Assembly: GCF_003334385.1 (NCBI RefSeq)
Contig: NZ_QOWN01000037.1
Length of the DNA stretch: 42,441 nt
Origin: Escherichia coli
Lineage (GTDB): Bacteria > Pseudomonadota > Gammaproteobacteria > Enterobacterales > Enterobacteriaceae
Direction: 5' to 3' (one strand)
In this document: positions 18,228-18,430 of the stretch, one piece after another
Numbering within the stretch: the first letter of the stretch is position 1
Layout: every line of letters starts with the position of its first letter
Position numbers and translations under genes: made by a program
The notes under the pieces: generated by a model
What the model was told of the DNA's origin: nothing
The model's database searches: none
What the model saw: only the letters and a program-made list of their open reading frames with translations

Positions 18228-18430
18228 GCCGGATGCGGCGTAAACGCCTTATCCGGCCTACGGTTCGATGCGATTTGTAGGTCGGATAAGATGCGCAAGC
18301 ATCGCATCCGACAATAAGTGCCGGATGCTGCGAAAATGCCTTATCTGGCCTACAGATTCGATGCGATTCGTAGGTCGGATAAGATGCGCAAGCATCGCAT
18401 CCGACAATAAGTGCCGAATGCGACCTACAT
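18228..18430. repeat. REP/BIME cluster with an internal ~90-bp tandem duplication
   Basis: GCCGGATGCGGCGTAAACGCCTTATCCGGCCTAC-type REP units; near-identical blocks at ~18264-18325 and ~18356-18417; between convergent ybhC and ybhJ. Confidence 0.85.

Follow-up and report, generated by a model that had tools for sequence, protein, structure and literature searches.

The amplification of REPs and BIMEs in tandem, and the variation of their copy number between strains, have been in the literature since the 1990s (Bachellier et al, 1997; Ton-Hoang et al, 2012, PMC3333891). Tandem copies are found both of BIME-2 elements, which combine Y and Z2 REPs, and of atypical BIMEs, which are chimeric; the number of copies varies between strains (PMC3333891). 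BIME-2 elements are bound with high affinity and cleaved by DNA gyrase (Espeli and Boccard, 1997, cited in PMC3333891), and the REP-associated transposase, TnpA-REP, cleaves and joins BIMEs in vitro and has been proposed as the driver of their tandem amplification (PMC3333891). The REPs of Escherichia coli K-12 are already catalogued, with 355 annotated REP regions.

Another described system is REP325, an array of 12 hairpins between the tandem genes yjdM and yjdN inside an operon, one two-hairpin unit of which (Z2 + Y) constitutes the Rfam model naRNA4 (RF02564) (bioRxiv 10.64898/2026.03.23.713779). REP325 has been shown both to stabilise mRNA and to function as an attenuator that depends partly on Rho, with Rho dependence seen only for the full-length array; REP fragments of two to four hairpins had no detectable Rho dependence (bioRxiv 10.64898/2026.03.23.713779). 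More generally, REPs are described as partly Rho-dependent terminators and mRNA stabilisers that present barriers to 3′ exonucleases, although the half-lives of REP-associated genes are not longer genome-wide (bioRxiv 10.64898/2026.03.23.713779). Approximately 60% of REPs lie between convergent genes, and a REP is found in approximately 30% of the convergent gene pairs of E. coli K-12, such pairs being more highly expressed (bioRxiv 10.64898/2026.03.23.713779). The role claimed for naRNA4 itself is disputed (bioRxiv 10.64898/2026.03.23.713779).

Here we describe a REP array between the convergent genes ybhC and ybhJ of E. coli. We consider it highly probable that the array is a resident BIME-2 or atypical BIME, the copy number of which changes by misalignment of its repeats and which would serve as a 3′-end element for transcripts arriving from both sides.

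Layout and class of the REP array

The DNA analysed, referred to below as the window, is a stretch of 42,441 nucleotides from an E. coli contig (NZ_QOWN01000037.1, assembly GCF_003334385.1). In the list of open reading frames, the coding sequence of ybhC occupies positions 16928-18211 on the plus strand and that of ybhJ positions 18445-20706 on the minus strand (2,262 nt annotated in NC_000913.3), with the 3′ ends of both directed toward the array. The gene names follow the RefSeq annotation of matching records with 100% identity. The stop codon of ybhC (TAA, 18209-18211) and that of ybhJ (18445-18447) bound a 233-nt spacer (18212-18444) that holds a single tandem array. Tandem Repeats Finder places this array at 18227-18422, with a period of 93, 2.1 copies, 91% matches and a score of 334, and identifies no other tandem array in the entire window. 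Two pairs of blocks make up the repeat: a long one of 65 nt (18264-18328 and 18357-18421), identical at 63 of 65 positions (97%), and a short one of 35 nt (18227-18261 and 18319-18353) with 89% identity. The original prediction, which placed a REP/BIME cluster containing a tandem duplication of ~90 bp between the convergent genes ybhC and ybhJ, is therefore borne out by the 93-nt period, the RefSeq annotation and alignment to naRNA4. It had also described two near-identical blocks of ~60 bp, the coordinates of which were right except that the start of the second, at 18356, is one base out of register.

From 18227 to 18428 the array reads Y, Z2-like, Y′, Z2-like and truncated REP, in orientations that alternate −, +, −, +, −, with linkers of 15-16 nt where REPs meet head to head and 5 nt where they meet tail to tail. 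The first REP stem begins 16 nt downstream of the ybhC stop codon. It belongs to unit 1 (18227-18261), a Y-type REP with a strong hairpin, a GTAG head on the minus strand and a sequence identical to the Y hairpin of naRNA4. Decomposition of the sequence into units then gives a 15-nt head-to-head linker, GGTTCGATGCGATTT (18262-18276), followed by unit 2 (18277-18313), a Z2-like REP of 37 nt with its GTAG head on the plus strand that aligns over the whole Z2 hairpin of naRNA4, and the 5-nt tail-to-tail linker ATAAG (18314-18318). Unit 3, or Y′ (18319-18353, minus strand), is a degenerate Y with a weakened hairpin that is 89% identical to unit 1, differing at 4 of 35 positions (G11T, T15A, C19T and C27T), and it serves as the marker of the second 93-bp unit. 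A 16-nt head-to-head linker of the unit-2 type, AGATTCGATGCGATTC (18354-18369), leads to unit 4 (18370-18406, plus strand), a Z2-like REP that repeat comparison, naRNA4 alignment and folding all identify as the same as unit 2, and a second ATAAG linker (18407-18411). The original prediction counted four palindromic units, and four full hairpins are indeed present; it did not mention a fifth, truncated REP, TGCCGAATGCGACCTAC (18412-18428, minus strand), which keeps both ends of a Y unit but lacks the middle. This truncated REP is retained in all Escherichia alleles examined and explains the extra 0.1 copy. All four occurrences of the REP head motif GTAGGYCKGATAAG in the window fall inside the array; 0.01 would be expected by chance. 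A repeat_region was looked for in the NC_000913.3 feature table and none was found, with only four coding sequences listed. Two open reading frames cross the array, one of 58 aa on the minus strand (18258-18434) and one of 135 aa on the plus strand (18268-18675) that is antisense to the 3′ end of ybhJ, and both almost certainly arise spuriously from the palindromic repeats.

The spacer is predicted to fold stably as RNA from either strand, at −116.3 kcal/mol for the plus strand (z = −10.0 versus shuffles) and −101.7 kcal/mol for the minus strand (z = −7.1), and in the predicted fold of the whole spacer the REPs pair with each other across the linkers. Individually, the full Y and Z hairpins have folding energies between −19 and −21 kcal/mol and z scores between −5 and −6 (−21.3 and −20.9 kcal/mol on the two strands for unit 1, −19.9 and −19.4 kcal/mol for the Z2-like unit). 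The Y′ hairpin has lost pairing and folds at only −12.6 and −8.7 kcal/mol on the two strands, and the truncated fifth unit on its own does not fold significantly better than shuffles.

The units have the properties of REPs, being imperfect palindromes of ~35-40 nt with a GTAG head that are extragenic and present in many copies per genome: an 851-bp query (17900-18750) found matches at a median of 25 places in each E. coli genome, and both the Y and the Z units match genome-wide REP families. Alternation of REPs with short linkers is the arrangement of a BIME, and the combination of Y with Z2 REPs, together with a number of tandem units that varies between strains, is that of BIME-2. On the minus strand, the doublet formed by Z and Y′ (18280-18350) matches the naRNA4 model at 60.7 bits, against a gathering score of 59.5, and the other REP doublets score 23-42 bits, below the threshold. 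The Z units align with the Z2 hairpin of naRNA4 over its full span, with equal length and loop, but three base pairs are changed on both sides. These changes preserve pairing. The Z units are a variant of Z2 rather than its consensus in the Rfam model, with a Y-like lower stem (GTAGGTCGGAT...ATCCGACA). BIME-1 (RIB/RIP) elements, in contrast, are single-copy combinations of Y and Z1 in which the long L linker contains an IHF site. The IHF consensus WATCAANNNNTTR has no match in the array, its nearest occurrence being in the phage att site at 16829, and the linkers are only 5 and 15-16 nt long, so the array is not a BIME-1; its Z units are of Z2 length and its unit is repeated. In its composition and behaviour, the array is a BIME-2-type element that may belong with the atypical BIMEs.

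The array is already known in kind, since its composition, tandem units, conserved copies and strain-variable number have all been published (PMC3333891). Like the BIME-2 and atypical BIMEs in the classes of Gilson, Bachellier and Hofnung (PMC3333891), it alternates Y with a Z2-type REP in a tandem REP-iREP unit, its copies are well conserved within the locus and the number of units depends on the strain. It shares with REP325 the Y + Z2 two-hairpin block and the location in a 3′ untranslated region, but has four hairpins and a stub between convergent genes, rather than REP325's longer array in an operon, and its tail-to-tail linker is 6 nt shorter. Its unit is an inverted REP doublet of about 90-100 bp, like that of the REPINs mobilised by RAYT/TnpA-REP. 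Unlike REPINs, however, units at this locus are gained and lost in place within repeat homology, which needs no transposase, and no new insertion site was observed.

Allele series and history of the array

The stretch spanning the 3′ ends of ybhC and ybhJ (17900-18750) is 100% identical to many K-12 derivatives. The window as a whole is not plain MG1655, a reading rejected because a lambdoid prophage adjoins ybhC. This prophage ends just upstream of the gene and includes an Rfam match to the lambda cIII thermoregulator (10216-10274, 88.5 bits), an Int-sized open reading frame of 356 aa (15723-16793), a lambda P′ arm with the IHF H′ site (16829-16841) and the reverse complement of the att core GCTTTTTTATACTAA (16868-16882), about 45 nt before the start of ybhC. 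The best phage match covers only 63% of positions 9000-17000, at 96% identity, and the prophage is therefore a mosaic lambdoid element and not lambda itself.

In 5,426 complete E. coli genomes, the region matched by the 851-bp query is 851, about 758 or about 687 bp long. Two or more units, detected with a 67-nt Y′ marker, are present in 2,781 genomes (51%). One unit is present in about 2,040 (38%), a count obtained by subtracting these 2,781 from the 4,821 genomes with ≥80% coverage and consistent with 16 of 40 evenly spaced match rows. The BIME is missing from 527 genomes (10%), including SMS-3-5, and about 78 (1%; the 605 with <80% coverage minus the 527) are unclassified. The Y′ marker matches at most two places per genome, and at least four genomes contain a perfect full-length match to a synthetic Y′-Z-Y′ query and so have three units, a state verified for SI-NP020 from its spacer sequence. 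Measured from the ybhC stop codon through ACATCTGACGG, the spacer is 83 nt long in the BIME-less allele and 153, 246 and 339 nt long with one, two and three units, which differ in exact 93-nt steps. The original prediction had proposed a comparison of copy number across strains, and the number is not identical: E. coli has alleles with 0, 1, 2 and 3 units, and a 5-unit allele is present in E. albertii. Among the 2,788 matches to the Y′ marker, one is on a plasmid-class record, possibly a plasmid-borne chromosomal segment or a misassigned contig. In BHUCD02 the array reads Y′-Z-Y′-Z, with a first unit of the second-unit type and 247 rather than 246 nt over the same stretch, owing either to gene conversion or to an assembly error.

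In a neighbour-joining tree built from 585 nt of flanking coding sequence, one clade contains the two-unit alleles of K-12, C5 and WCHEC020032, the three-unit allele of SI-NP020 and the one-unit alleles of EC0026B and C3. The flanks of EC0026B are identical to those of K-12, and its single unit keeps the unit-1 linker and the K-12-type Z loop. The single unit of C3 is chimeric, with Y joined to the unit-2 linker and a breakpoint within a short GGCCTAC identity. These alleles represent two independent contractions with different breakpoints, in EC0026B and C3, and an expansion in SI-NP020. Because nested one-unit alleles differ in their breakpoints and three-unit alleles exist, contraction and expansion recur, and at this locus contraction is at least as well documented as expansion. 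Every breakpoint lies in sequence that is homologous between repeats, as slippage or unequal exchange would predict. In the proposed process, the 93-bp Y-linker-Z-linker unit would be gained or lost when near-identical repeats misalign, by replication slippage or unequal recombination, possibly with help from TnpA-REP. Slippage, RecA-dependent exchange and TnpA-REP are not distinguishable from sequence.

The BIME is not restricted to E. coli. The locus was found in further Escherichia lineages by a degenerate DNA scan of species-representative genomes, which did not recover E. fergusonii. E. albertii has five full units followed by the same truncated unit, E. whittamii has one unit, as do E69 and SCPM, two divergent genomes labelled "E. 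coli", and Escherichia sp. E1V33, with flanks that are 6% divergent, has two. Because E. albertii, E. whittamii and E1V33 all carry units at this site, comparison of these genomes indicates that the BIME predates E. coli and is ancestral in Escherichia. Two Citrobacter genomes (L016 and L026) have a convergent ybhJ-like gene with a pair of their own species-type REPs in the same spacer, so that either REP occupancy of the spacer 3′ of ybhC is wider than Escherichia or it had an independent origin in Citrobacter. The second unit of E1V33 has three of the Y′ substitutions and the linker in common with K-12. Y′ is thus common to A/B1-type E. coli and E1V33, with the lineages between them having one unit, a distribution that points either to an ancestral polymorphism followed by repeated contractions or to interspecies recombination. 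The Z copies match within each lineage, with GCAAGC twice in K-12-type alleles and GCGTCAGC twice in E1V33, and the GCAAGC loop is absent from ancestral-type one-unit alleles, the ancestral Z loop being GCCAGC. These paired, lineage-specific variants indicate concerted evolution of the Z units.

The allele series bears on how the second unit arose. The original prediction suggested a local expansion, to be qualified in that the two-unit state is an old majority allele rather than a recent one. A recent expansion private to the K-12 lineage, that is, a young duplication without history, would account for the near identity of the two Z copies and their linkers (63/65 in the long block) and for the presence of the GCAAGC loop variant in both copies and its absence from ancestral-type one-unit alleles. 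However, Y and Y′ have already diverged at 4 of 35 positions, the second unit is found in 51% of genomes, some with flanks unlike those of K-12, and E1V33 shares the same three Y′ substitutions and linker despite its divergent flanks. The genome share and the sharing with E1V33 refute a private origin, which we regard as highly improbable. Because of its frequency, and because a degenerate Y′ occurs in another Escherichia species, the two-unit state is instead a common old allele. Duplication of a repeat unit by assembly or sequencing error is a general risk with tandem repeats, and the Y′-Z-Y′-Z arrangement in BHUCD02 could be such an error. The same two-unit sequence nevertheless recurs in thousands of independently finished genomes, among them many K-12 derivatives, which refutes an artefact as the source of the array and makes its probability negligible.

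Possible role at transcript 3′ ends

The alleles with and without the BIME differ in their terminators. No intrinsic terminator-like sites were found in positions 18000-18700 of the window or in the one-unit allele, and the array was rejected as an intrinsic (Rho-independent) terminator because the BIME alleles have no G+C-rich hairpin directly followed by a T-run. In the BIME-less allele, represented by strain e1-39 (L003, 513-583) and the same in all 527 BIME-less genomes, two hairpins take the place of the array and form three terminator-like sites facing both genes, where 0.4 would be expected, such that a hairpin and T-run follow each of the convergent genes. The BIME-less alleles lie inside E. 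coli in the flank tree and are therefore derived. In the window, the end of the spacer (18429-18444) is a remnant, ATTCACATGGCGCTTT(TT), similar to the terminator's right arm and T-run. The right-hand remnant of BIME alleles reads CATGGCGC, then five T, then ACAT in the alignment of spacers, and it appears to be homologous to the right arm of the BIME-less terminator. In strain M2021-10044802/2-E, a copy of IS200C with a frameshifted tnpA is inserted in the BIME-less allele (L004, about 512-1210), after the ybhC stop codon and before the first terminator hairpin.

With no intrinsic terminator in the spacer of the BIME alleles, it is probably the REP hairpins that serve as a bidirectional 3′-end element for both ybhC and ybhJ. 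This lack of a terminator, and published work on other REPs, make plausible the influence on termination or mRNA stability that the original prediction put forward. Transcribed from either side, the stable hairpins would attenuate read-through, in part through Rho, and would block 3′-to-5′ exonucleases, thereby standing in for the intrinsic terminators that BIME alleles lack. This function is proposed by analogy with other REPs, since the literature and supplements searched contained no transcript 3′-end, half-life or Rho data for the ybhC-ybhJ locus. A search of the literature also found no paper treating ybhC together with ybhJ, and the supplements of the 2026 REP preprint, searched for ybhC, ybhJ and MG1655 coordinates 8057xx-8059xx, gave differential-expression rows only and no per-REP table. 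At 16 nt past the ybhC stop codon, the first REP stem is just beyond the 15-nt limit on the distance of a REP from a stop codon, a limit known to us from a secondary account. The decay of the Y′ hairpin argues against selection on every unit.

The match of the Z + Y′ doublet to naRNA4 above its gathering score could point to an independent small-RNA gene with its own transcription and processing, the product of which acts with HU on the nucleoid. The margin is 1.2 bits, however, and the remaining doublets fall short of the threshold; the model is itself a Y + Z2 REP doublet that any BIME-2 unit can match, so the match is not evidence of a small-RNA gene. No promoter-like site was found in or near the spacer (18000-18700), and REP325/naRNA4 produce no measurable nucleoid compaction and act as 3′-UTR elements (bioRxiv 10.64898/2026.03.23.713779). 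We therefore consider such a gene very unlikely. It is somewhat unlikely that the array is purely neutral or selfish repeat DNA that has no function here, kept because precise excision is rare and drifting in copy number. Consistent with neutrality, Y′ has lost much of its pairing, copy number varies freely between 0 and 5 without obvious constraint, mRNA half-lives are not lengthened by REPs genome-wide (bioRxiv 10.64898/2026.03.23.713779), and the mobilisation of REPs is attributed to a domesticated transposase (PMC3333891). On the other hand, the same site has been held across Escherichia species with its hairpins kept, and all departures of the Z-unit stem from canonical Z2 leave pairing intact. 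Furthermore, the BIME alleles have no other terminator and only the BIME-less allele has a full intrinsic set, which suggests that something must fill the 3′-end role. Part or all of the array could nevertheless be neutral or selfish, given the absence of Rho dependence in short REP fragments, the unchanged half-lives and the decay of Y′. It is also conceivable, but we think it unlikely, that REP copy number is a quantitative dial on read-through and mRNA stability of ybhC and ybhJ, or that hairpin-specific selection or directed conversion operates on the array. Both Z copies are conserved in step while Y′ decays; if this reading were true, selection or directed gene conversion, and not plain drift, would keep particular hairpins uniform. 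A BIME with a probable bidirectional role at transcript 3′ ends is the reading that we prefer.

For the annotation of E. coli genomes, the naRNA4 match at this locus should not be recorded as a small-RNA gene, and beyond good annotation the array matters little. With alleles of 0 to 3 units and one in which the BIME is swapped for terminators, the ybhC-ybhJ spacer could provide a convenient natural test bed for the debate over REPs as terminators or stabilisers.
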